From: Desulfuromonas sp. | Lineage (GTDB): Bacteria > Desulfobacterota > Desulfuromonadia > Desulfuromonadales > Desulfuromonadaceae | Length of the DNA stretch: 64,000 nucleotides | NCBI GenBank assembly: GCA_002869685.1 | Contig: PKUE01000146.1 | Location: forward strand, 4,882 to 68,881 | Direction of reading: 5' to 3' | Shown here: positions 41,891 through 56,342 of the stretch, piece by piece | How the letters are laid out: each line of letters begins with the position of its first letter | How positions within the stretch are numbered: the stretch's first letter is position 1 | Program-made: the position numbers and the translations under genes | Notes under the pieces: generated by a model | The model's input: only the letters and a program-made list of their open reading frames with translations | Database searches by the model: none | What the model was told of the DNA's origin: nothing

Positions 41891-41961
41891 TACTTTACTG
41901 AGTTGCCTGTCTGCCCACGACTAATGTGGCAGCGATTACGGAAAACTCTGAAAGGTTTGCT

Positions 41962-42207
41962 ATGCTGGTACTGACCAGAAAAGTCGGTGAAGGGATTGTC
42001 ATCGGCGATGATATTAAGTTGCAGGTTGTCGAAATCAAGGGGGGGACTATCCGCCTTGGGATTGAGGCGCCGCGCAGCAAAAAAATCTATCGCCAGGAAG
42101 TCTACGATAATATCCAACAACAAAACAAAGCGGCGACCAGCTGGTCGATCGAAGATCTTGATTTGCTTGATGGCTCCTGGCCACAAAAACCCAAGGGGGA
42201 GAAATGA
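41962..42207 (+). CDS. csrA: Carbon storage regulator CsrA (long, FliW-type)
   Basis: MLVLTRKVGEGIVIGDDI...IYRQEVY..IQQQNKAA with a C-terminal extension. Confidence 0.96.
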   Translation: MLVLTRKVGEGIVIGDDIKLQVVEIKGGTIRLGIEAPRSKKIYRQEVYDNIQQQNKAATSWSIEDLDLLDGSWPQKPKGEK

Positions 42208-42635
42208 AAACCATCCAAAGCCGTTTTGGAGAGATCGAATATGACCCTGAAAATGTTGTCACATTCCCTGAGGGGTTGATCGGTTTTGAAAACCTGCGTG
42301 ATTTTATTGTTATGCCCAACAAAAAAGAGGGGCTGCTGTTCTGGATTCAGAGTGTTGAAGATCCCGAGGTGGCTCTTGTTCTTACCGACCCGACCAATTT
42401 TTTTCTGACGTACAAAGTTGTGCCCGAGGAGGGCGAACGTGCCAAGCTCGACATTTCCGAAGAAGACGACAGTTATTCTCTGGTAGTCGTGACCGTGTCA
42501 CCGCAGCAGGAAGTGACCTTCAATCTGATGGCTCCCATCCTTTTTGCCCCCAAAACAAACCGGGCGATTCAGGTGATTTTGGAGAAAAGCGGCTATAGTA
42601 CCCGTGAACCGTTGCCGAAGATTGAAGCCTCATAA
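42204..42635 (+). CDS. fliW: Flagellar assembly factor FliW
   Basis: SRFGEIEY, FPEGLIGFE, WIQSV, NLMAPI. Confidence 0.95.
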   Translation: MKTIQSRFGEIEYDPENVVTFPEGLIGFENLRDFIVMPNKKEGLLFWIQSVEDPEVALVLTDPTNFFLTYKVVPEEGERAKLDISEEDDSYSLVVVTVSPQQEVTFNLMAPILFAPKTNRAIQVILEKSGYSTREPLPKIEAS

Positions 42636-43395: not shown

Positions 43396-44762
43396 AACGA
43401 GAAGATTTTGTAATCAATCAGCACGCAACGCTCTCAGAGTCTCTGCAGCTCATCAATAACAATAAACATGGTTTTGTACTTGGTTGCGAAGGCTCGGGAA
43501 AGATTGTCGGCATCGCCACAGATGGTGATATTCGAAGGAAACTTCTCGATGGCAGGACGTTGCAGGATGAACTTCTGACCTGTCTGAATGAGGATTTTGT
43601 CTGGGCGAACGAGACAACGTCACGAGAAACTCTTCTTAAGTGTCTGGATCATCGTATCCGGGCTATTCCTGTTCTTGATGATCATGGCGGTCTGGTTGAT
43701 ATTGTCACCCGGGAAAACCTGCCCATTCAGATTGAAGAGCCAGTCTATGTTCGATCCCGGGCTCCCGCACGAATTAGCTTTGGTGGCGGTGGCTCTGATA
43801 TTACCTATTATTTCTCCGATAATGGCGGTGCCGTGATCAGTGCCACCATTAATCTGTACAGTCATGCCACGCTGAAAAAACGTGATGATTCACGTGTGCG
43901 TATTTTGTCTCGGGATTTGAATTGCTCCCTTGAAGCTGAAAATTTAAATGCAGCACTTAAATCACCCGGCAAGTTTGGTCTTATTCTGGCGATTGTCAGG
44001 CTGGTTTCTCCGACCTTTGGTTTTGATCTGTATCTGAATTCCGACTTTCCGGTTGGCTCCGGTTTGGGAGGCTCGGCCGTGGTCACTGCGGCAGTCTTAG
44101 GCTGTTTCAACCAGTTCCGGCAGGATAAGTGGAATAACTACGAACTGGCCGAGCTTGCTTTTCAGGCAGAGCGGATGAACTTTGACATTGCCGGAGGTTG
44201 GCAGGACCAGTATGCAACGGTCTTTGGTGGTTTCAATTTTATGGAATTTAAAATGGATCAGAATCTGATCCATCCGTTACGGATTGATCCGGCGACATTG
44301 CGGGAATTGGAAGAGTGTCTGATCATCTGTGACACGAACATGCCCCATGATTCCGGGAAAATCCATAAGGACCAGAAAACAACGATTCTGAAATCAGATG
44401 GCAGCCAGGCTGTGATGAAAAATGTCGAAATGACCTACCGGTTGAGAAATGATCTGTTGCGTGGCCGGTTGCTAGATTTCGGCCGCAACCTGAATTCGAT
44501 CTGGCAGCTCAAAAGGCAGTTCAGTAACAAAATTACCAACCCCACCCTGGATGAGATTTACAACTACGCGCTTGAGAACGGTGCCGAAGGGGGCAAGTTG
44601 ATGGGAGCCGGCGGCGGTGGTTTTTTCATGTTTTACGTGAATCCGTTTAATAAATACGGATTGGTCGAAGCCCTGGAGAGTCGGGGTCTCGGAGTGCGGA
44701 ATTTTCAGTTTGACAATGACGGGTTACAGTCCTGGGTTGTCAGGGCAACCGAAAAAGAGTAG
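43392..44762 (+). CDS. CBS-domain / GHMP sugar kinase fusion (HddA-like)
   Basis: N-terminal CBS pair (GIATDGDIRR..L; AIPVLDDHG.LVDI); RAPARISFGGGGSD, PVGSGLGGS, GGWQDQYA, GGKLMGAGGGG. Confidence 0.88.
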   Translation: MKREDFVINQHATLSESLQLINNNKHGFVLGCEGSGKIVGIATDGDIRRKLLDGRTLQDELLTCLNEDFVWANETTSRETLLKCLDHRIRAIPVLDDHGGLVDIVTRENLPIQIEEPVYVRSRAPARISFGGGGSDITYYFSDNGGAVISATINLYSHATLKKRDDSRVRILSRDLNCSLEAENLNAALKSPGKFGLILAIVRLVSPTFGFDLYLNSDFPVGSGLGGSAVVTAAVLGCFNQFRQDKWNNYELAELAFQAERMNFDIAGGWQDQYATVFGGFNFMEFKMDQNLIHPLRIDPATLRELEECLIICDTNMPHDSGKIHKDQKTTILKSDGSQAVMKNVEMTYRLRNDLLRGRLLDFGRNLNSIWQLKRQFSNKITNPTLDEIYNYALENGAEGGKLMGAGGGGFFMFYVNPFNKYGLVEALESRGLGVRNFQFDNDGLQSWVVRATEKE

Positions 44763-44777
44763 GAGCTGTTTCAGCAT

Positions 44778-46673
44778 ATGAATTTTCAAATAGGTCGCCT
44801 GAATGTCAGTAATGAGCGCTGCACCATCATTGCTGAAATCGGCAATAACCATAATGGTGATTTTGAACGCGCGATCGCGTTAGTCGATCAGGCCCAATCG
44901 ATTGGTGTCGATTGCGTGAAGTTCCAGATGCGAGTTCTGGATCAGGTTTATCGAAAAAAAACGTTAGCTCGCAGCGGCGAAGATCTTTCGACAGAATATG
45001 TCGTCGATCTGTTGGAAAAATTTGAATTGTCACCCGACGAGCATTACCGGCTTTTCGACTATTGCCAAAAAATCGGCATCGAATACCTCTGTACGCCATG
45101 GGATCTCGAAAGTACGAGGATTCTCGAATCTTTCGGGGTGCCCGGGTATAAAATCTCTTCCGCCGATTTGACCAACCTGCCGTTGATTGATGCGGTAGCC
45201 AGAACACAAAAACCGCTGATTTTGTCGACCGGGATGAGTTACTTTGACGAGGTCAAGAAAACGGTCGCGTTCCTGCAAAAACACAACGCGAACTTTGCCC
45301 TGCTGCACTGCAACAGTACTTATCCGGCCCCCCTTCAGGACATCAATCTGAACTGGATGTCACGATTAAAGGAGCTGCATCCCCTGGTGGGCTATTCGGG
45401 GCACGAGAGAGGGATTGCCGTGTCGTTTGCGGCCCGAGCTCTTGGTGCGTGTATTATTGAACGCCATTTTACCCTGGATCGCGAAATGGAAGGCCCTGAC
45501 CATGCCGCCAGCCTTGAATTCAACGATTTTGACGCATTGGTCAAAGGTCTCCGTGATATCGAAATGGCACTCGGATCTTCAGAGGAGCGTGTGCTGAGTC
45601 AAGGTGAAATTATCAACAGAGAGAACCTGTCCAAAAGCCTGATTGCCTCAAGGCCGCTGAAACTCGGGACGGTTCTGGCGCCCGGGGATATCAGTGTACG
45701 AAGTCCCGGCCAGGGATTGTCACCCCAATGTTACGAAAGTCTGTTGGGGAAAGTTCTGCACAGAGATATGGAGGAGGAGGATTTCTTCTACCAGACTGAT
45801 TTGCACGAGACGGTGATTGAACCGAAAAACTACAGCTTCGACCGTCCATGGGGGATCCCGGTCCGCTATCACGATTTTCAAAAATTCCACACCTTCGTTC
45901 AACCGGACTTTTTCGAGTTTCATTTTTCCTATTCCGACATGAGCCTTGATCCCGCGGATTTTCTCCACGGTGAGTACGACTGCGATTTTGTTGTGCATGC
46001 CCCGGAACTGTTTTCGGGAAGCCACCTGATGGACCTGGCAACGCCGGATGACTCTTATCGCCAGCAATCGCTGCAGGAAACACAGCGCATCATTGATATT
46101 ACGCGAGCGCTCAAGAAATATTTTCCGCGCACCAAACGACCTATGATTGTTGCCAATATCGGTGGGTTTACGATGGACCAGCCGATTGCGAAACAGGAAC
46201 ATGAGGCCTACTATCGCCGCTTTGCCGAAAGTCTGAAAGCGCTGGATCTTCAAGGTGTCGAGCTCATTCCGCAAACGATGGCACCGTTCCCGTGGCACTT
46301 TGGCGGACAACGCTATCAGAACCTGTTTGTCGAACTCGATGAAATCATCGAGTGGTGTGAAAAGCTTAACATCCGACTGTGTTATGACGTTTCTCACAGC
46401 GCTTTGACCTGTGCTGCATACGGTGTCGATATCTATGATTTTAGCGCAAAAATTTCTCCCTATGTGGCGCATCTGCATCTTGCTGACGCAAAAGGGGTTA
46501 ACGGGGAGGGGTTGCAGATCGGCGAGGGCGATCTTGATTTCATCCGCTTAAATGAGATTCTGCGCCGGGGCTGTCCCCAGGCTTCATTTATTCCCGAAAT
46601 ATGGCAGGGCCATAAAAATAACGGTGAAGGCTTCTTTATTGCCCTTGATAAACTGGAACAGTTGTCCCGTTGA
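44778..46673 (+). CDS. neuB: NeuB-family ulosonic acid synthase with SAF and C-terminal xylose-isomerase-like TIM barrel
   Basis: IIAEIGNNHNGD, KISSADLTN, ILSTGM, LHCNSTYP, GYSGHE, IERHFTLD, GPDH.ASL; C-terminal VHAPE, CYDVSH, HLHLAD, IGEGDLDF, FIPEIWQGH. Confidence 0.88.
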   Translation: MNFQIGRLNVSNERCTIIAEIGNNHNGDFERAIALVDQAQSIGVDCVKFQMRVLDQVYRKKTLARSGEDLSTEYVVDLLEKFELSPDEHYRLFDYCQKIGIEYLCTPWDLESTRILESFGVPGYKISSADLTNLPLIDAVARTQKPLILSTGMSYFDEVKKTVAFLQKHNANFALLHCNSTYPAPLQDINLNWMSRLKELHPLVGYSGHERGIAVSFAARALGACIIERHFTLDREMEGPDHAASLEFNDFDALVKGLRDIEMALGSSEERVLSQGEIINRENLSKSLIASRPLKLGTVLAPGDISVRSPGQGLSPQCYESLLGKVLHRDMEEEDFFYQTDLHETVIEPKNYSFDRPWGIPVRYHDFQKFHTFVQPDFFEFHFSYSDMSLDPADFLHGEYDCDFVVHAPELFSGSHLMDLATPDDSYRQQSLQETQRIIDITRALKKYFPRTKRPMIVANIGGFTMDQPIAKQEHEAYYRRFAESLKALDLQGVELIPQTMAPFPWHFGGQRYQNLFVELDEIIEWCEKLNIRLCYDVSHSALTCAAYGVDIYDFSAKISPYVAHLHLADAKGVNGEGLQIGEGDLDFIRLNEILRRGCPQASFIPEIWQGHKNNGEGFFIALDKLEQLSR

Positions 46674-46701
46674 GTTGATCTCAACGGATGTGAGGCATGC
46701 G

Positions 46702-47364
46702 ATGGCGAATTACGCGATTATACCGATACGAAGTGGGAGCAAACGATTCCCCAATAAAAACATCTTTCCCATAGATGGGTTGCCGTTGTTTCATTTCGCG
46801 GCGCATGTTGCCCGGTTAAGTGGTGTTTTTGATAAGGTGATTATCACCAGTGACAGCGAGGAATACCTCAAGATCGCTCAAGACTACGGCTATGATCTGC
46901 ACAAGCGGTCTGAAGCCGCATCTTCAGACCATGCCAGCTCCGAAGATATTATTGACGAAGTTCTCAGAGATTTTGATATGAAGGAAGGTGACTGGGCTTT
47001 TCTCATTCAGGCGACGTCTCCGTTTCAGCAGGAGCATTATTTCCAAGCTGCTGCCGCTCAAATCAATCGTGGGATCTCCAGTATTGTCACCTATCGAAGT
47101 TTTAAACGGTTTTTTCTTGAAGATGTCATTGGTAAAGAGCGCAAGAGGACCCAGGATTTTGCCAGCCGCAAGCTTGAGACCGGCATGTTCTGGGGCTTTA
47201 ATGTCGGGGCTTTTTTTGAAAAGAAAAACAGAATTATCGAGCCTTATGGATTAGTCGAGATAAAAGAATTCGATGATGTTGATATCGACTATTTTGAGGA
47301 TATTGAAAACCATATCCCCCGTTTAAAAGCGCTAGCGCAACAGTACAAAGCCGAAAAACCTTAA
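46702..47364 (+). CDS. Acylneuraminate cytidylyltransferase (NeuA/PseF/LegF-like)
   Basis: AIIPIRSGSKRFPNKN, IITSDSEE, LIQATSPF, DIDYFED; start reassigned to the ATG at 46702. Confidence 0.88.
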   Translation: MANYAIIPIRSGSKRFPNKNIFPIDGLPLFHFAAHVARLSGVFDKVIITSDSEEYLKIAQDYGYDLHKRSEAASSDHASSEDIIDEVLRDFDMKEGDWAFLIQATSPFQQEHYFQAAAAQINRGISSIVTYRSFKRFFLEDVIGKERKRTQDFASRKLETGMFWGFNVGAFFEKKNRIIEPYGLVEIKEFDDVDIDYFEDIENHIPRLKALAQQYKAEKP

Positions 47365-47378
47365 CCGAAGGGGTAAGC

Positions 47379-48176
47379 ATGGCCGGAAATAAATTTGATC
47401 GTTTGAACTACGACGAATATTTTGTGCGAAGAACCCCACCGCAGGCGGTAGATTTTGAAGAGGGTTATTGGGGAGAATCCACAGATCCCGATGGCGTCAT
47501 CAGGAATATTGGTGAAGAGCGTGAGCACAAAAGAGAGCTGGCGGCAACGGAGTTGTCGTTTATCAATGCCCTCACCCCCGGACGTGTGCTCGACGTGGGG
47601 TGTGGTGTTGGTGCCATTCTCGAGGGGGTGAATGACTCCTGGGAGAAGCATGGCCTCGAAGTCTCTCAGTATGCTGCGGAAAAGGCTCAGCCTTACGGGG
47701 AGATCTTTTGTGGGGAATTACATCAGGCAAAATATCCCGATGGTTTTTTTGACGCCATTTTACTGTTTCATGTGATTGAACATCTGCAGTCTCCGCTGGA
47801 GGTCCTCACCGAAATCCGTCGCATTCTGAAGGTTGATGGTTGGCTGATTGTCGGGACCCCCGACTTTGACTGCGGTTGCGCGAGAAAATATGGCGACCAA
47901 TTCCGACTGTTGCACGATATTACCCATATTACGCTGTTTTCCAGTAACAGCCTGTTCCGGATGATGACGGATCTGGGTTTTTCAGTTGAGAAAACGGAGT
48001 ATCCATTTTTTGATACGAAGTATTTTACCAAAGAAAATCTTTTACGATTGTTTGACGATCAGGCGGTTTCACCACCTTTTTACGGCAATATTATGACCAA
48101 ATATTGTCGTAAACTCAGTAAGGAAGAGTGCGAAGAACGCGTGGAGTATCTGAAAACGCTGATCGATCGCATGTAA
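47379..48176 (+). CDS. Class I SAM-dependent methyltransferase
   Basis: VLDVGCGVG, GLEVSQYAA, FDAILLFHVIEHL. Confidence 0.88.
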   Translation: MAGNKFDRLNYDEYFVRRTPPQAVDFEEGYWGESTDPDGVIRNIGEEREHKRELAATELSFINALTPGRVLDVGCGVGAILEGVNDSWEKHGLEVSQYAAEKAQPYGEIFCGELHQAKYPDGFFDAILLFHVIEHLQSPLEVLTEIRRILKVDGWLIVGTPDFDCGCARKYGDQFRLLHDITHITLFSSNSLFRMMTDLGFSVEKTEYPFFDTKYFTKENLLRLFDDQAVSPPFYGNIMTKYCRKLSKEECEERVEYLKTLIDRM

Positions 48177-48224
48177 TTAGCTTTTCACTGTCACCAATTC
48201 GTCAGCTAACTTCGGGGAGGCACC

Positions 48225-48950
48225 TTGAGCTCAATTGATAAGCTATTCAAGCAGACACCACATCCTGCTGAGGTCAGTGATTACTGGCATGTATTTGATT
48301 TGTCGAACTGCCTCAATGTTTTTTATTGGGCCAAATATTTTGAGATGGCTGAACAAGCTCCCGCGGGTTGCATCATAGAATGTGGTGTTGGCCGGGGGCG
48401 GAGCTTGATCAGCCTGTTGGCGCTCGAAGCACTTTTTTCTGCAATGAATAGCAGGCCGTATCGCCAGGTTTATGCATTGGACAGTTTTGAAGGATTTCCC
48501 GAACCGCATCAGGTGTTTGATCAAAGTCCCCGCAATCCCCAAAAGGGTCAATGGGGAAGTTCACCGAACAACCAGTTCTCATATTCCGTTGACAATCTGG
48601 TGACGATTTTAAGAAATTCGCATGTTTACGATGTTGCAAAAGAACAACTAGAAATAGTAAAGGGATTCTTCTCTGAAACCATTCCCACGTTGAATGTCGG
48701 CGCTATCTCAATTCTTCATCTGGATGGAGATTTGTATGAATCGGTAAAGTGTCCACTGGATGCGTTATGGGAAAAGGTTGTCCTTGGTGGGGTGATCGTT
48801 ATTGATGATTTTGTGCTGGTTGATGAACACGAAAAGGATGAGCCGTTTCCAGGGGCCCGTAAGGCCGTTCTCGATTTTATGGAGAACAATGAATGCTTCG
48901 AGATCAAAGGAAGCGTCAGGGGAACGCCATATCTTGTGCGGGTGCGGTAA
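48225..48950 (+). CDS. TylF/MycF/NovP-family sugar O-methyltransferase
   Basis: IECGVGRGRS, DSFEGFP, KGFFSETIP, LHLDGDLYES, GGVIVIDDF. Confidence 0.85.
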   Translation: MSSIDKLFKQTPHPAEVSDYWHVFDLSNCLNVFYWAKYFEMAEQAPAGCIIECGVGRGRSLISLLALEALFSAMNSRPYRQVYALDSFEGFPEPHQVFDQSPRNPQKGQWGSSPNNQFSYSVDNLVTILRNSHVYDVAKEQLEIVKGFFSETIPTLNVGAISILHLDGDLYESVKCPLDALWEKVVLGGVIVIDDFVLVDEHEKDEPFPGARKAVLDFMENNECFEIKGSVRGTPYLVRVR

Positions 48951-49012
48951 TTGATCTGCACGATTGAATCAGGGCGAGGCTTGTGGTTTTGGAGAAAGGT
49001 TTGTGAGGTACC

Positions 49013-50974
49013 ATGTCAAAAATAGATAGTCTGAAAGAGATGACCCCGCAGGGGCGTGCTGAAGCATTAGAGCAGCAATTCCAAAAAAACAAAGCCTTTT
49101 TCCAAAAGAATTATCCTGAGGTCGCCCCCTTTTTAGGCGCAGGTGCCGCTCCCTTTCATATCAATGTTACCGACGATTTTTTGACGATTGTCAACACGGA
49201 GAATGGAGAACTCTGCCATCCGGAAGTTGGCCTGGATCTTTTTGCGCAGAAACTTGGCGACTGGACCCATAAAGCATGGATTGATCTGATCGACGGGACA
49301 ATTTATTCCTTTCCGGATCACGGTTATTATTCACAGTTTCCGGTGCGGTTTCAGAAAAAGATGCTCGAGTCTTTCCCTGGCCTGATACCGCGTATGGAAG
49401 GGCGGCAGATCAACCTTCCCGAACTCGCCAATGGTAAACACTTTTCAAACCCGGTTGTTTTTTACGGCGTATTTCATGGTCTGCATATCGATCACTATCT
49501 CAGCCGGACTCAGCTTGCTTGTGCCGCCTTTGTTGAGCCGGAGCCCGCTCGTTTTGTTCTTTCCTGCTATTTCCTCGATTACCAGTCGTTCGAGACAAGG
49601 TTTGAGAGACTGATCCTTCATATCGGTCCGGGCTTACCGGAAAACTTTGTTGATCTTTTTTTCAGACAGGCCAAAGTCTCCAGTGGCGTATGGACGAGGA
49701 TATTGCCCGGTTATCCCTCGCCGCAGCTCGAAGAGGTGACACGCTCATTCCGGCTGAAATGGCGTTCGCGTGATGTCTGGATGCCCCAGGACTGGCGCAT
49801 TAAAGGGATGGAAAATGCTCACGCTAACATTACCGGCGGGGATTTGATCTGGGGACAACATGTGTCGTTGTCTTCGAAAAGCCGCATTGCCGTGGTTGGT
49901 GCCGGACCTTCTTTGAGTCATGATCTTGAATGGCTTGCGCAGCATCAGGATCAGTTTGTCATTTTTTCAGTACACAGTGCAGTGTCCGCATTGAGAACTG
50001 CCGGGATTAAACCGGATTTTCAATTTACCCTGGATATTAACCCTTGGGATGAGGAAATTTTTCAGCGGGTTCAACTGGACCCTTCAGTTCCTGTAGTGAC
50101 ATCGGTTAATGATTTCCCGGATAAGTTTCAAGCTTTTGACGAAGTATTCAGAATTGTTCAGGAAGATGGGGTGAACCCGTTTCAGATGAAAAACGGGGTT
50201 CCTTTTCTTGTGCCGACATCGGGGAATATGGCGCTGGCCTTTGCCTGTTGGTGCAAGCCTTCTCAGATCTATCTTTTTGGTTTGGATTTCGGTTTTCGCG
50301 AATCAACCAAAACGCACGTTGCTGAAAGCTCTGCCTACCGAAATGAGGATGAACACCGGGAGATTATCGGTTCAGGCTCCCTTGAGGTTGAAGCGAATTT
50401 CAGCGGAGCTGAAAAAGTTTATGCCCAGTCCTACTTTAATATGGCCCGTCTTTGTGCTGAAGTTCCAATTGCCGTCGCAAATGGAGAGGTTAAGGTGTTT
50501 AACTGCTCCGACGGGGCGCGTCTTCGTTCCGCCACCCCCTGTCGATCTTGCGATATCGAAGCGAGAGACTACTGTAAAGAAGATGATCTGCGGCGGATAA
50601 AAGAGATGTTTCTGCCTCTGGTAGAGGGAGTGCACTGGGATCGTTTTGCTCTTACGGGTGCGTCTCAACTGGAAGCTTATAAAGCTGCCATGGTGAGACT
50701 GTTAAAAATGAAAAAGTTCAACTGGCTGAAATTTGTAGATAAAATAGATCACTTTTATCTTCTGTTGCAGAAACAGTTGCCGAACAAGGTTGCCAAAAAC
50801 ACCGATCCCCGAATCATCCCCTATGTTGAACTTATTGTGCTGTTGTTTGATGCCTGGTATCGCTTCCTGTGTTTCACAAATACAGAAGAAGAATGGGGAA
50901 GCGTCTATGAAAAAGGCTATGTAGAGCTGTGCAAACTTGTTGAAGAGATGTTCTGGCCTGAAGGGCTCAATTAG
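49013..50974 (+). CDS. Maf-family flagellin glycosyltransferase (DUF115)
   Basis: IAVVGAGPSL, SALRTAGIKPDF, IYLFGLDFG, VFNCSDGA; directly upstream of the flagellins. Confidence 0.85.
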   Translation: MSKIDSLKEMTPQGRAEALEQQFQKNKAFFQKNYPEVAPFLGAGAAPFHINVTDDFLTIVNTENGELCHPEVGLDLFAQKLGDWTHKAWIDLIDGTIYSFPDHGYYSQFPVRFQKKMLESFPGLIPRMEGRQINLPELANGKHFSNPVVFYGVFHGLHIDHYLSRTQLACAAFVEPEPARFVLSCYFLDYQSFETRFERLILHIGPGLPENFVDLFFRQAKVSSGVWTRILPGYPSPQLEEVTRSFRLKWRSRDVWMPQDWRIKGMENAHANITGGDLIWGQHVSLSSKSRIAVVGAGPSLSHDLEWLAQHQDQFVIFSVHSAVSALRTAGIKPDFQFTLDINPWDEEIFQRVQLDPSVPVVTSVNDFPDKFQAFDEVFRIVQEDGVNPFQMKNGVPFLVPTSGNMALAFACWCKPSQIYLFGLDFGFRESTKTHVAESSAYRNEDEHREIIGSGSLEVEANFSGAEKVYAQSYFNMARLCAEVPIAVANGEVKVFNCSDGARLRSATPCRSCDIEARDYCKEDDLRRIKEMFLPLVEGVHWDRFALTGASQLEAYKAAMVRLLKMKKFNWLKFVDKIDHFYLLLQKQLPNKVAKNTDPRIIPYVELIVLLFDAWYRFLCFTNTEEEWGSVYEKGYVELCKLVEEMFWPEGLN

Positions 50975-50999
50975 GGTGGCGGGTGGTAAGGAAAAGCGT

Positions 51000-51027
51000 T
51001 AAATATTTGCTGCCGATCGGCCGATGC
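51000..51027 (+). promoter_or_regulatory. Sigma28 promoter of flagellin 1
   Basis: TAAA-N16-GCCGATGC. Confidence 0.7.
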
Positions 51028-51047
51028 AATAAAAAGGGATTTTTGAA

Positions 51048-51196
51048 AAGAAGGTAACGCGGGTTGTCGACGGGTGGTATCCCGGTTCGGGAGAGAGTCA
51101 CTGTCGCCATCCGTATCTGTCGACAATTGAGAGCACGAAGGGTTCGTGTTGTAAATAGACCTTCTTACGATTGCATTTGTGAGGGCAGGGTTGCCC
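51048..51196 (+). other. Structured 5' leader of flagellin 1
   Basis: Nested complementary segments (see findings). Confidence 0.5.
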
Positions 51197-51224
51197 GCGA
51201 AGTAGAATCATGGAGGACTGATCA

Positions 51225-52412
51225 ATGGCTTTAACAATTAATACAAATGTTGCGTCTCTCAATGCGCAACGCAATCTGGGCACTTCCCAGGTGGATCTTG
51301 ACAGGTCCATGCAGCGGTTGTCTTCCGGTTTGCGCATCAATAATGCCAAGGATGACGCCGCAGGGCTGGCCATCTCTGACCGGATGACGGCACAGATTCG
51401 TGGCCTGAATCAGGCTGCCCGTAATGCTAATGATGGCATTTCGATGGCGCAAACCGCCGAAGGGGCCTTACAGGAGAGTACCAATATCCTGCAGCGTATC
51501 CGTGAACTGGCCGTTCAATCTGCCAACGACACCAACAGCATCTCCGATCGTGCGTCTCTGAACGATGAAGTTGAACAATTGATCGAAGAGTTGGACCGCA
51601 TTGCTCAGACCACTCAATTCAATGGGATCAACGTTATTGATGGCAGTTTGACCAGTGCCGTATTCCAGGTCGGGGCGAATGCCGGCTCCAACCAGACCAT
51701 CTCATTCGGTATTGAAAGTGCCCTCGCTACGGATTTGGGGACTGCAGGCGAAGAGGTTGTCGCTGCGGCAACAGCAACGACAACGTTCAATGGTCTCAAG
51801 TTTACCGCAGGGAGTGCCGGCGCAGACGGAAATGAGAGTTTTTCTCTCTCGGTTGTTCAGACTTCCGCGGCCAATACCGATGTCACGTTGACGCCATCGG
51901 AGAATTATTTGCTGGTGGAATTGGGGACGGCAACGGGGCAGGACCAGGCAAGTGTTGTTCTTGCCCAGCTTGACGATTTGGGGTTCACGGGTTTTACCGG
52001 AGTTTCAGTTGAGACGGTATCGGCAACGACCACATGGTCGACAGATCTTAGTGGCAGCACCATCTCGCTGACGGGTGGGACTGATCTGGTTGAATCGGTT
52101 GCCGTTGCAGATATTTCTGTCAAGACTCTCAACGACGCGCAGGCCGCAATCGCCAGTGTTGATAATGCACTTGACGATATTGATAATATTCGGGGTGGTC
52201 TTGGCGCGGTGCAGAACCGATTTGAGTCGTCAATTGCCAACTTGAATAATGTTGCTGAAAACCTTGCTGCCGCCCGATCGAGGATTCTTGACGCAGATAT
52301 CGCTCAGGAAACCTCCAATATGACTAAGCAGAATATTTTACAGCAGGCCGGAGTTTCCATTCTGGCCCAGGCTAATCAGGGCCCTCAGTTGGCTTTGTCG
52401 CTGCTGGGATAG
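51225..52412 (+). CDS. fliC: Flagellin 1
   Basis: [36 protein letters not shown]. Confidence 0.98.
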
Positions 52413-52460
52413 CGATAAAAATTTTTTTTTGAAAAAAAAGAAGAAAAGTGATTTTTTTTC

Positions 52461-52488
52461 TAAACTCTATCGGCGGAGTCGTCGATAA
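52461..52488 (+). promoter_or_regulatory. Sigma28 promoter of flagellin 2
   Basis: TAAA-N16-GTCGATAA with an upstream A/T tract. Confidence 0.8.
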
Positions 52489-52591
52489 AGTGGATAACGG
52501 GAAGATTACAGCGGAAAAGGAGGTGGGTAGATCGTTATCAGCTTTCCCTCGTAACTTCTAACAAACGAATAACTCGCCGGACCGTCCGGCA

Positions 52592-52605
52592 GGGCACGGA
52601 AGCCC
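52592..52605 (+). promoter_or_regulatory. CsrA-binding hairpin in the flagellin 2 leader
   Basis: GGGC-ACGGAA-GCCC (GGA in a hexaloop), with a second AUGGA overlapping the SD. Confidence 0.75.
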
Positions 52606-52633
52606 ACTAAACACAATCATGGAGGACTAAATC

Positions 52634-53812
52634 ATGGCATTAACAATTAACACTAACGTAGCATCCCTTAACGCCCAACGTAACCTCGGTTCATCTCAGG
52701 CAAACCTCAACAAGTCCATGCAGCGCCTGTCTTCAGGTCTGCGCATCAACAGTGCTAAGGACGACGCAGCGGGTCTGGCTATTTCTGACCGTATGACCGC
52801 TCAAATCCGCGGCCTCAACCAGGCAGCTCGTAATGCAAACGATGGTATCTCTCTGGCGCAAACTGCTGAAGGCGCTCTGCAAGAGAGCACCAACATTCTG
52901 CAGCGTATTCGTGAGCTGGCCGTTCAGTCTGCCAACGATACCAACAGCGTTTCTGACCGTGCTTCTCTGAACGATGAAGTTTCTCAACTGGTTGAAGAGC
53001 TTGATCGTATTGCTCAAACTACAGAGTTCAACGGTACAAACGTTATCGATGGTACCCTGTCCAACGCGGTATTCCAGGTTGGTGCAAATGCAGGTTCTAA
53101 CCAGACCATCTCCTTTGGCATCGAGAGTGCCCAAGCTGCTGATCTGGGTACTGCAGGTGATGAAGTTATCGCTGCCGCTACAGCAACCGGTTCTTTCTCT
53201 GACCTGACTTTCACTGCTGATGCCGCAGGTTCTACTGCGAATGCAACTTACACCATCGTTGCTAATCAGTCGGCTGCAACAGCATCCAGCACCAGTGCTA
53301 CTTTTACGGCATCGAATAACACGATTACCGTAACTCTGGGAACCACTACTGGTCAGGATGCTGCCAGTGTTGTTGCAACCGCTGTTGCTAGTGCACTGAG
53401 CGGTGTTAGCGTTTCTGCAGCTACCGGCGCGGCCGCTTGGACTGCTTCCAGTGATGGTTCTGTCACCTTGGCTGGTGGTAGTGATCAGATCGTAACGACA
53501 GCTGTTGCTGATATCACCATCGCGACTCGTGAGGGTGCGCAGTCTGCTATCTCCAGTGTTGATAAGGCTCTGGAAGACGTTGACAACATTCGTGGCGGCC
53601 TTGGTGCGGTACAAAATCGCTTCGAATCAACCATTGCCAACCTGAACAATGTTGCTGAGAACCTTTCAGCTGCACGCAGTCGGATTCTTGATGCGGATAT
53701 CGCTCAGGAAACCTCCAACATGACCAAGCAGAATATCCTGCAGCAAGCTGGTGTTTCTATCCTGGCGCAAGCCAACCAGGCACCTCAGCTGGCTCTGTCT
53801 CTGCTGGGCTAA
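52634..53812 (+). CDS. fliC: Flagellin 2 (probable major flagellin)
   Basis: Conserved flagellin termini; Ser/Thr/Ala-rich variable region; T-ending codon bias. Confidence 0.98.
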
Positions 53813-53831
53813 TCGCGTTAAGGGCACAACC

Positions 53832-53862
53832 AAAAGGGCCGGCTTTGGCCGGCCCTTTTTTC
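53832..53862 (+). terminator. Rho-independent terminator after flagellin 2
   Basis: AAAAGGGCCGGC-TTTG-GCCGGCCCTTTT plus T run. Confidence 0.9.
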
Positions 53863-53875
53863 TCTTAGCCCGGTT

Positions 53876-54244
53876 GTGCATATGGAGGAACTCATGGAAA
53901 TTCAAGCTGTAGGTTTAAATAGTCTGACACAGCAGTCACTCCCCAAAGCCAGCGAAGAAATCGAAATGAATCGCAAGGCTAAGGATTACGCTGATGCACC
54001 TTCGGCGTCTGCTGCGGTAGATAAAGTTCAACCCGAGGAGCTTCTGGACCAGATCAAATCCTTGACTGAAGACGGGTTGTACAGTGTTCGTTTTGAAAAT
54101 GATGATGATGCTCAGCAACTGGTGGTAAAGATTGTCGATACCGAGACGGATGAAGTGATTCGTCAGGTTCCGGCAGAAGAAATTCTTTCCCTTTCCGTGC
54201 GCTTGGGTGAATTGCGCGGTAATATTGTTGATACGGAAGGCTAG
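53876..54244 (+). CDS. flaG: FlaG
   Basis: LVVKIVDTETDEVIRQVPAEEIL; the start is probably a downstream ATG. Confidence 0.93.
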   Translation: MHMEELMEIQAVGLNSLTQQSLPKASEEIEMNRKAKDYADAPSASAAVDKVQPEELLDQIKSLTEDGLYSVRFENDDDAQQLVVKIVDTETDEVIRQVPAEEILSLSVRLGELRGNIVDTEG

Positions 54245-54270
54245 TCTTTCATTCTGGTATCAAGAGGGAG

Positions 54271-55896
54271 TTGGTTATGGCTATCTCGTTTAGTGGCTTA
54301 GCGACAGGATTGGATACTGGCAGCATTGTGGAGCAGTTGATGGCGGCTGAGCGTGCGCCGATTACCAGTTTGCAGTCAGATCGTACGTGGCTGTTGTCCC
54401 GTCAACAGGCGTATAAGACATTTGATAGCAAGTTGAACTCTTTCTTGTCAGGCATCCAAAAGCTCGGTTCCAGTGATGATCTGCAACAAAAGACGGCCTC
54501 TGTTTCACGCGATGATTTTCTGTCCGCCAGTGTTGGTGTCGATGCGCTACCTGGGACCAGCTACCAGATTGAGGTTGTCTCCCTGGCGCAGGTACAAAAA
54601 GGGGTGTCTCAGGGCTACCAGGATAAAGAAGCTGCCAGCTTTGGGATGGGCTCGTTGACCCTCAATGTTGGTGATGATGTCACGACTATTGCGATTGATG
54701 AGACGAATAATTCGCTTCAAGGGATCATGGAAGCGATCAATGCGGCAGATTCCGGAGTTACCGCATCCATCATCAATGATGGAACGGATTCACCCTATCG
54801 TCTGGTTCTGACCGGAGCGGACGTTGCGACCTCTTTTTCCCTTGAATCTGATTTGCCTCAATTCAATGGTGATGTGACGACCTTGACCACCGGAGGATAT
54901 GCTGATGCTGAAGCGGCTCTTTTTGGTGGTGGAACGCTCAGTTTGTCCACGGGCTTTGACATTGCGATTACCGCTAATAGCTCTCTGAATGCGATCCGTG
55001 ATGCGATCAATGCCGAGTCGGCCCTAACCGGTGTCAGTGCCACTGTTGAAGATGATGGCTCTGGTGGTTACAAGCTCAGTCTGGCTGGAGGTGACATCGT
55101 TTCGACGGACCTGTCTGGCGGCGATGGTGCTGATCCGTTTAGCATGGCGACTACGCAGGATGCGACCCAGGCGCATATCCGGGTCGACAATATCGATATC
55201 TATTCAACCAGCAATACGTTGAGTGAGGCAGTTCCGGGCGTGACGCTTGATCTGTTGAGTGCCGAGGAAGGGACAACGACTAATTTGACTGTTGACCTCA
55301 ATGAGGATGCAATCAAGGCGCAGATCAAGTCCTTTGTGACGGGCTACAATGATGTCGTCTCCTTTGTCACTTCTCAGTCCTCCATCAATGGTTCAGATGG
55401 CGGGATTCTGTCCGGTGATTCCGGTTTGAGTATGGTGAAGCGGCGTCTTCAGAATATGCTGACTCAACAGATGTCCAACAGCGGTACGTTTACGGCGTTG
55501 TCTCAGTTGGGACTGCAGACGCAGCGAAATGGAACCCTTGAGTTGGATGACGACATTCTGACGGATGCAATTCAAAATGATCTCAGCAGTGTTGAAAAAC
55601 TCCTGGTCGGAGAAAATGGCTCAGATGGTATCGCTGTCGTATTTCAGAACTATCTCGAGGACATTACCGATTCTTCCGATGGTCTGCTGGCAAGTAATCA
55701 GGAACGTACTGAGACGAGCATCCGCCGTATTGACACACGTATTGGTCAGATAGAGTCGCGGCTGGATCACAAAGAGGAAACGATGCTGGCTCAGTTCAAT
55801 GCGATGGAGCTGTTAGTGAGCGGCATGAATTCGCAAAGCAGCTTTTTAACCTCCCAGCTGACAGCGCTGGAAAACTTATGGAATTATAAAAAATGA
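54271..55896 (+). CDS. fliD: Filament cap FliD
   Basis: FSGLATGLDTGSIVEQLM, TQDATQA, FVTGYN, LAQFNAME. Confidence 0.96.
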   Translation: MVMAISFSGLATGLDTGSIVEQLMAAERAPITSLQSDRTWLLSRQQAYKTFDSKLNSFLSGIQKLGSSDDLQQKTASVSRDDFLSASVGVDALPGTSYQIEVVSLAQVQKGVSQGYQDKEAASFGMGSLTLNVGDDVTTIAIDETNNSLQGIMEAINAADSGVTASIINDGTDSPYRLVLTGADVATSFSLESDLPQFNGDVTTLTTGGYADAEAALFGGGTLSLSTGFDIAITANSSLNAIRDAINAESALTGVSATVEDDGSGGYKLSLAGGDIVSTDLSGGDGADPFSMATTQDATQAHIRVDNIDIYSTSNTLSEAVPGVTLDLLSAEEGTTTNLTVDLNEDAIKAQIKSFVTGYNDVVSFVTSQSSINGSDGGILSGDSGLSMVKRRLQNMLTQQMSNSGTFTALSQLGLQTQRNGTLELDDDILTDAIQNDLSSVEKLLVGENGSDGIAVVFQNYLEDITDSSDGLLASNQERTETSIRRIDTRIGQIESRLDHKEETMLAQFNAMELLVSGMNSQSSFLTSQLTALENLWNYKK

Positions 55897-56342
55897 ATGC
55901 CTATACACAGCAATATCAACAGAATCAGATCCTTACGGCGTCGCCTGAGCAGATTCTTGTCATGTTGTACGATGGTGCAATTCGTTTTACGCGACAAGCG
56001 ATGCAGGGTATAGAAACCCAGAACACCTCGTTGAAACTCGAAGGTGTTTCGCGGGCCATGGCTATTATCACCGAATTCTCCAATACGCTGGACCATGAGA
56101 TTGGTGGCGAGATTGCTGAGAATCTGGATGCTTTGTATGCTTTTATGAATCGTCAGCTCAGCCAGGTAAATATCGATGGAGATATTGAAAAGCTCAAAGT
56201 GGTTGAAGGACTGCTGATGGAGCTTCGCGAAACCTGGGTGGAGGCGATCACCATTGCTCGAAAAGAGGCATTAGGCAGAGAATCGGCAGCTCAAACTCCA
56301 GCTCTTCCGGAAAATTACAAATCCCTGAGTGCCGCCGGTTAG
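55893..56342 (+). CDS. fliS: Flagellin chaperone FliS
   Basis: TASPEQILVMLYDGAI, GGEIAENLDALY. Confidence 0.97.
   Translation: MNAYTQQYQQNQILTASPEQILVMLYDGAIRFTRQAMQGIETQNTSLKLEGVSRAMAIITEFSNTLDHEIGGEIAENLDALYAFMNRQLSQVNIDGDIEKLKVVEGLLMELRETWVEAITIARKEALGRESAAQTPALPENYKSLSAAG

Follow-up and report, generated by a model that had tools for sequence, protein, structure and literature searches.

Background

In Bacillus subtilis the flagellin Hag, FliW and the RNA-binding protein CsrA make up a partner switch (Yakhnin 2007 and Mukherjee 2011, as cited in PMC6529632 and PMC13443453). The hag gene has a sigma-28/SigD-type promoter, and its leader carries two CsrA sites: a GGA in the loop of a short hairpin (BS1) and, a short spacer downstream, a GGA-containing Shine-Dalgarno sequence (SD; this site is BS2). 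Here we describe two tandem flagellin genes, fla1 and fla2, in a 64,000-nucleotide stretch of DNA from Desulfuromonas sp. (assembly GCA_002869685.1, contig PKUE01000146.1, positions 4,882 to 68,881). We call the whole of this stretch the window; coordinates are those of the window, and all features given lie on its + strand. Both leaders are arranged like that of hag, and the GGA of BS1 is present in fla2 and lost in fla1. Going by the sequence and by analogy with the described systems, we believe that fla2 encodes the major flagellin and is fully subject to CsrA-FliW homeostasis, and that fla1 encodes a minor flagellin under much weaker CsrA control, a reading to which we give a probability of roughly 0.57.

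The size of effect that we expect is drawn from the literature on B. subtilis and Campylobacter jejuni, not from this organism. The sow3 allele of B. subtilis, a point mutation in the high-affinity hag site, has a 25-fold lower affinity for CsrA (PMC6529632), and G-38A, which turns the GGA of the upstream loop into GAA, abolishes repression by B. subtilis CsrA (PMC13443453). The natural loss of GGA in fla1 mimics these laboratory alleles. In C. jejuni the Kd of CsrA is about 50 nM for flaA and above 350 nM for flaB, which makes binding at least 7 times weaker, and the level of FlaB is unchanged in a csrA mutant (PMC4894983).

The locus in the window is like that of B. subtilis in its sigma-28-like promoters, in the loop GGA and the GGA-containing SD of fla2, and in having csrA and fliW adjacent and translationally coupled, although here the coupling is suggested by an overlap of the two genes. 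The order of the pair in B. subtilis is fliW then csrA, whereas here it is csrA then fliW. The locus also differs in having two flagellin paralogs of unlike BS1 status, in the extra 5'-proximal AAGGAGGUG box of fla2, and in being known from sequence alone.

The flaA/flaB pair of C. jejuni (Dugar et al. 2016, PMC4894983) has the strong CsrA site on the major paralog and the weak site on the minor one; the genes here may be alike, to judge by sequence, the codon adaptation index (CAI) and the effective number of codons (ENC). The C. jejuni genes, too, are a tandem pair beside a glycosylation island. The promoters are different: flaA has a sigma-28 and flaB a sigma-54 promoter, whereas both genes here have sigma-28-like boxes, consensus matches of the form TAAA-N16-(G/C)(C/T)CGAT. 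Different too is the nature of the change, which here is one invariant loop nucleotide in an otherwise kept hairpin, plus a lost 5' box. The flaB gene of Borrelia burgdorferi (Sze et al. 2011, as cited in PMC4894983) shares the two-site CsrA operator with one site over the SD but, as far as that citation goes, it is a single regulated flagellin with no paralog contrast. Work on CsrA and FliW in Geobacter sulfurreducens (PMC11934962, PMC13407953) does not address flagellin leaders.

The two flagellin leaders

The anatomy of both leaders can be read directly from the DNA. Each gene stands behind its own sigma-28-like promoter, found as a consensus match in a pattern scan: TAAA-N16-GCCGATGC at 51000..51027 for fla1 and TAAA-N16-GTCGATAA at 52461..52488 for fla2. 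The leaders that follow are about 190 nt long in fla1 and about 138 nt in fla2. The BS1 hairpin of fla2 (52592..52605) is made of GGGC (52592-52595), the loop ACGGAA (52596-52601) and GCCC (52602-52605). After a 10-nt spacer comes BS2, the SD box ATCATGGAGGACT at 52616..52628, and the start codon ATG is at 52634. The hairpin of fla1 (51183..51196) is of the BS1 type, with GGGC at 51183-51186 and GCCC at 51193-51196, but its loop is AGGGTT (51187-51192) and the GGA is lost. A 10-nt spacer, the identical box ATCATGGAGGACT at 51207..51219 and an ATG at 51225 follow. In both genes this box contains AUCAUGGAGGACU, two overlapping GGA motifs lying over the SD in the region 6-18 nt upstream of the ATG. 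The strings of stem, loop and 13-mer, the 10-nt spacing and the coordinates of the two hairpins had been given in an earlier note on this DNA and are exact to the base on reading the window. The note had also claimed further GGA motifs for fla2, and these are indeed enriched, 7 against 2.9 expected (P about 0.004), in a way that those of fla1 are not (4 against 4.8 expected).

The module has not diverged evenly between the two genes. Identity is 8/8 in the BS1 stem and 13/13 in the SD box, compared with 5/10 in the spacer and 3/6 in the loop. Since the loop is about as diverged as the spacer while the stem is intact, the fla1 loop appears to evolve like unconstrained sequence within a stem that is still kept. 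In predicted folds the fla2 stem has a pair probability of 0.99 and the hexaloop an unpaired probability of 1.0, which leaves the GGA exposed. The fla1 hairpin has a pair probability of 0.6 and is predicted to form a 5-bp stem, GGGCA/UGCCC, with a GGGU tetraloop. A hag-type BS1 would expose a GGA in a hairpin loop 10-60 nt upstream of BS2. The fla2 leader has such a hairpin and the fla1 leader has none; its nearest GGA, the SD pair aside, is base-paired and precedes the SD by 122 nt. Two independent ENA assemblies of the same species (99.6-99.8% identity over 7.2 kb) have exactly the same fla1 leader, AGGGTT included, so we rule out an assembly error as the origin of this loop.

Near its 5' end the fla2 leader has a further SD-like, GGA-rich stretch (52512..52526, GGAAAAGGAGGTGGG), the AAGGAGGUG box mentioned above, which is a candidate extra CsrA site or mRNA stabiliser. 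Its GGAAAAGGAGGUGGG lies about 24 nt past the -10 element. The degenerate counterpart in fla1 (51045..51059, GAAAAGAAGGTAACG) is 18 nt past the -10 element and without GGA, with only GAAAAGAAGGUAACG at the position of the box. The two distances are similar, and homology of the two boxes is plausible. Of the 27 BS1-bearing leaders of relatives described below, about 12 have a box of the form RRGGAGGYG. It stands 104-174 nt before the ATG and, where a -10 element is visible, 24-38 nt past that element. We observe that in relatives (L009-L011, L014-L018, L021, L030) this purine-rich, almost perfect SD-like box begins some 15-30 nt from the 5' end of the flagellin mRNA, with no start codon nearby. 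It could serve CsrA as a third site, or it could bind ribosomes and stabilise the 5' end, and in the latter case may be likened to the STAB-SD elements of Bacillus, which are stabilisers of that kind.

What we say of CsrA affinity and of translation we infer from this anatomy. In fla2, with a GGA in the hexaloop of a stable 4-bp hairpin, a double GGA over the SD 10 nt downstream and the GGA-rich 5' box, one CsrA dimer would bridge BS1 and BS2 and block ribosome binding, and flagellin export would free FliW and relieve the block. In fla1 the stem and the identical BS2 are kept. CsrA would be expected to bind this leader much more weakly because the loop GGA is lost, the 5' box is absent and no accessible GGA lies within 120 nt of the SD, so that the synthesis of Fla1 would for the most part escape the CsrA-FliW loop. 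The two flagellins probably both bind FliW and FliS, and both probably titrate FliW, because the conserved termini are kept (those of fla1 and fla2, 90% identical at the N terminus and 87% at the C terminus, are typical flagellin termini) and it is the flagellin termini that form the FliW and FliS interfaces (PMC6070490).

It might be argued instead that the fla1 leader is under some other regulator, either as an RNA switch or through another RNA-binding protein. It is the longer of the two, at about 190 nt, and has two hairpins presenting GGG (51134-51148 and 51183-51196), 48 nt apart, which share the hexamer AGGGUU. The shared hexamer may mean nothing, since a repeated 6-mer is expected by chance in 189 nt. 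The leader folds no better than its shuffles (z -1.04; 31 of 200 fold as well), a scan of 44000-56000 against Rfam at E up to 1 gave no family for either leader, and the 190-nt sequence has no homologue in 60 relatives that could supply covariation. No FlbT-type regulator was found in the genome either. We reject the structured switch for lack of support, going by the shuffles and the missing homologues, and regard another regulator as very improbable and the least supported of the three rival explanations that we consider.

Conservation of the module

Flagellin leaders were taken from 40 relatives in the genus, family and order, and gave 32 distinct leaders including the two in the window. 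A GGGC...GCCC hairpin with a GGA loop stands 38-47 nt upstream of the ATG in 27 of these. One has another stem with an AAGGAU loop, three have no hairpin and a weak SD and are the first genes of tandem arrays in three same-genus genomes, and fla1 is the only one with the GGGC/GCCC stem and without the GGA. The commonest loop in the relatives is the ACGGAA of fla2; others are AAGGAA, AAGGAU, AUGGAA and similar. When the leaders of 26 relatives, none from the window, are aligned, GGGCA, GG, A, GCCC and TCA-GGAGGA are invariant in 26/26 and the spacer varies freely. The fla1 leader breaks exactly one invariant column, where the A of GGA has become U, and at a variable loop position it has G where the other leaders have C, A or U.

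When the 26 relatives' leaders, with the window excluded, are made into a covariance model, fla2 reaches 45.1 bits (E 6e-11) and fla1 24.8 bits (E 6.5e-5), and no other match in the 64-kb window is better than E 2. Because a model made from relatives alone picks out both leaders and nothing else at this level, the module common to fla1 and fla2 is, on the sequence evidence, homologous and not a chance likeness. We also looked in the window for a decoy RNA mimicking the leaders and found none; the model matches the two leaders, and weakly that of flaG (9.5 bits, E 2.4). The flaG leader (53822-53896) comes directly after the fla2 terminator and has an SD box, AUAUGGAGGAACUCAUG, that resembles the BS2 box of the flagellins. 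In C. jejuni, flaG is a CsrA target.

The same model, run on 80 metagenomic loci, found 13 further hairpin-bearing leaders, and 11 of the 13 have a GGA loop. Among the GGA-loop leaders are some with compensatory stems (GAGC/GCTC, CCGGT/ACCGG and CCGGC/GCCGG), which supports the hairpin as a real RNA structure. Two near-identical metagenome contigs (L217:234-298 and L221:243-307) carry a sigma-28-type flagellin leader with GGGC-AUAGAG-GCCC and then UUCAAGGAGGA. Here the stem is kept and GGA has become AGA, in a different lineage, which is a second case of a retained stem without GGA, so such variants are not unique to the window.

We also scanned public genomes for the pattern, which gives examples across phyla and not a distribution. 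At least about 20 of the 81 matches listed are the hairpin and SD module directly upstream of a flagellin. Among the matches listed, the module-bearing flagellins are those of Treponema and other spirochaetes, clostridia, Desulfovibrio, other Desulfobacterota and Nitrospirota, and the GGGCA-N-GGA-N-GCCC hairpin thus precedes flagellins in the group to which Borrelia belongs. Of the 20 genera among the relatives, the 11 in which FliW is found are also those in which flagellin is found. Given the conserved hairpin and SD and this co-occurrence, we assign the module by its sequence to the hag-type two-site CsrA operator, with a GGA hairpin as BS1 and a GGA-containing SD as BS2. Conservation and analogy together support the view that this conserved hairpin is where CsrA binds flagellin leaders with high affinity. 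The invariant A in 26 leaders and the GGA kept in 11 of 13 more point to strong selection on this motif, which fla1 would have escaped.

History and codon usage of the paralogs

The conserved termini give a tree in which fla1 and fla2 pair as sisters (support 100/99) within a set of flagellins that bear BS1. It is therefore most likely that their ancestor carried the GGA and that fla1 lost it. The terminal branch of fla1 is 0.13 and that of fla2 0.0084, about 15 times shorter, and by this measure fla1 is the derived copy and fla2 the ancestral-like one. The sequences indicate a lineage-specific duplication, and an old one: synonymous divergence (dS) is saturated at about 2.5 and the proteins are 75% identical. 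The ratio of nonsynonymous to synonymous divergence (dN/dS) between the two is 0.07, with both copies under purifying selection.

Codon usage separates the paralogs clearly. With 26 of this genome's ribosomal-protein genes as the reference set (mean 0.738), the CAI of fla2 is 0.792, at the 99.9th percentile of 1754 genome open reading frames (ORFs) and above the ribosomal-protein mean itself, while that of fla1 is 0.671, at the 70th percentile. The ENC is 37.9 for fla2 and 50.6 for fla1. It is because of this bias that we take fla2 for the major flagellin.

One could read the same history as simple decay, in which fla1, as a redundant and weakly expressed duplicate, is slowly degenerating and the loop change is a product of neutral drift with no designed role in the make-up of the filament or in homeostasis. 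The branch 15 times as long as that of fla2 and the ordinary codon usage would fit this, as would the 190-nt leader that has no counterpart in the relatives and the differences between strains, 3 of 8 nt protein-changing in fla1 and none of 5 in fla2. We consider decay quite unlikely, in view of the dN/dS of 0.07 with saturated dS, of an ORF that is intact in three assemblies, and of the sigma-28-like promoter, perfect SD box and BS1 stem that fla1 has all kept. It must also be set against the recurrence of the pattern: extra paralogs without BS1 arose independently at least three times on the tree, each beside a BS1-bearing copy. These lineages are fla1 itself, the gene next to fliW in three same-genus genomes, and a clade from metagenomes. 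A search for a close fla1 orthologue with its leader in metagenomes found none, the best full-length matches being 49-58% identical.

The three same-genus genomes (L036:1999, L037:1794, L038:1865) deserve separate mention. The first of their four tandem flagellins, a protein of 600 aa beginning MSLTINTN, lies directly downstream of fliW. This first gene has no BS1 and a weak SD, and the other three copies bear BS1. BS1-less paralogs are never the most codon-biased copy. We do not find weaker codon bias to be a rule for them; it is a trend only, as some BS1-bearing copies are equally unbiased.

The loss of BS1 in an extra paralog could in principle be a selected design in which Fla1 is a CsrA-insensitive sensor or primer flagellin. 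Translation of Fla1 would begin as soon as sigma-28 is active, and the protein would go on binding FliW. The amount of it in the cytoplasm, as a measure of export capacity, would gate translation of Fla2, the bulk flagellin, through FliW and CsrA. The recurrent BS1-less paralogs and the GGGC-AUAGAG-GCCC lineage are compatible with such a design and are no proof of it. We hold it to be doubtful. That the difference between the paralogs sets the ratio or the order of subunits in the filament, as the earlier note proposed, is speculation.

How strongly is fla1 controlled?

Several observations weigh against our reading of fla1 as weakly controlled and minor. The double GGA over the SD is the same in fla1 as in fla2, so that free CsrA, if its concentration is high, can still vie with the ribosome for this site. 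Because this identical BS2 is kept, control of fla1 by CsrA may be weakened rather than absent. CsrA proteins of two other species still repressed the GGA-less G-38A hag leader (PMC13443453). The fla1 hairpin retains 8/8 stem positions amid a spacer diverged to 5/10 and saturated synonymous sites, which hints that it is still used for something. Finally, codon bias is merely a proxy for abundance.

Taken further, the identical BS2, the repression by the two other CsrA proteins and the retained stem could mean that there is no functional difference at all and that CsrA represses both mRNAs about equally, either through a BS2 that is sufficient or through a BS1 in which CsrA tolerates a GGU/GGG loop. 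The finding that C. jejuni flaB is repressible in a heterologous reporter (PMC4894983) would agree with this. Equal repression would leave it hard to see why the A of GGA should be invariant in 26 leaders and the GGA kept in 11 of 13 others, and it runs counter to the B. subtilis point mutants, in which a single change in BS1 makes affinity 25-fold weaker and regulation is lost. The fla1 leader is moreover without the 5' GGA box and without GGA enrichment. We therefore think equal repression unlikely and prefer the view that fla2 is under full control and fla1 under much weaker control. The claim of the earlier note that only flagellin 2 is under full control is thus supported in part, in this softened form. 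The loss of GGA in fla1 and the codon bias speak for it, and the retained BS2 allows some control of fla1 to persist.

The locus and its genome

The flagellar genes in the window run flgM-flgN-flgK-flgL-csrA-fliW, then a seven-gene glycosylation island with Maf last, then fla1, fla2 and flaG-fliD-fliS. Both regulators that the earlier note reported are confirmed by Pfam and NCBIfam matches. csrA (41962..42207) encodes 81 aa from an ATG at 41962; its listed ORF begins at a GTG at 41926, and 41962 is the probable start, with the NCBIfam match (TIGR00202, 86.5 bits; Pfam CsrA 2.3e-25) running from residue 1. The RNA-binding residues are canonical, with MLVLTRK in beta1 and the equivalent of Arg44 conserved, and the relatives in the PDB include 5DMB chain D. 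fliW (42204..42635; Pfam FliW 6.4e-35, NCBIfam NF009799 201 bits) has PDB relatives in 5DMB chain A and 2AJ7. The stop of csrA, the upstream gene, overlaps the start of fliW as ATGA (42204-42207), which suggests translational coupling.

The two flagellins, fla1 (51225..52412, 395 aa) and fla2 (52634..53812, 392 aa), each match Flagellin_N and Flagellin_C in Pfam. An intrinsic terminator with a 12-bp stem and then a T run lies 3' of fla2 (53832..53859). Between the fla1 stop and the fla2 promoter, at 52410-52460, is a long tract of T and A runs, whose T-run length differs among three assemblies.

The organism is known from metagenomic assemblies alone, and the source assembly is 3.1 Mb in 186 contigs and 94.8% complete. 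In it we find one csrA, one fliW and two flagellins. A third Flagellin_N match, on contig C143, is no flagellin and belongs to a second flgK/flgL pair (465 aa and 297 aa; L042:843-3136), which exists besides the 552-aa FlgK and 451-aa FlgL-like protein of the window.

Outside the window the genome also carries a dispersed repeat family of adjoining units of about 250 nt and about 160 nt, 70-85% identical, with over 25 copies spread across more than 20 contigs. It is often found at contig ends (for example L251:2150-2550, which is C100:48150-48550, and L250:2507-3115). The longer unit forms a long hairpin with a GCGGAA hexaloop, whose core is present in 14 exact copies. The repeat has no Rfam family and no obvious ORF. 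We considered that it might be a group II intron end and dropped the idea, as there was no Rfam match.

Conclusions

The principle behind our reading is known from C. jejuni and B. subtilis, so the gain is incremental. If CsrA does discriminate between the two leaders, they would be a natural single-nucleotide experiment on how the ancient CsrA-FliW checkpoint is tuned between paralogs with the same class of promoter. They also make a simple pair of RNAs for gauging what the A of the GGA loop contributes to binding by a CsrA from a non-model organism. The comparative data add that the GGGCA-N-GGA-N-GCCC and SD module is conserved across an order and present in several phyla, and that extra flagellin paralogs repeatedly drop it.

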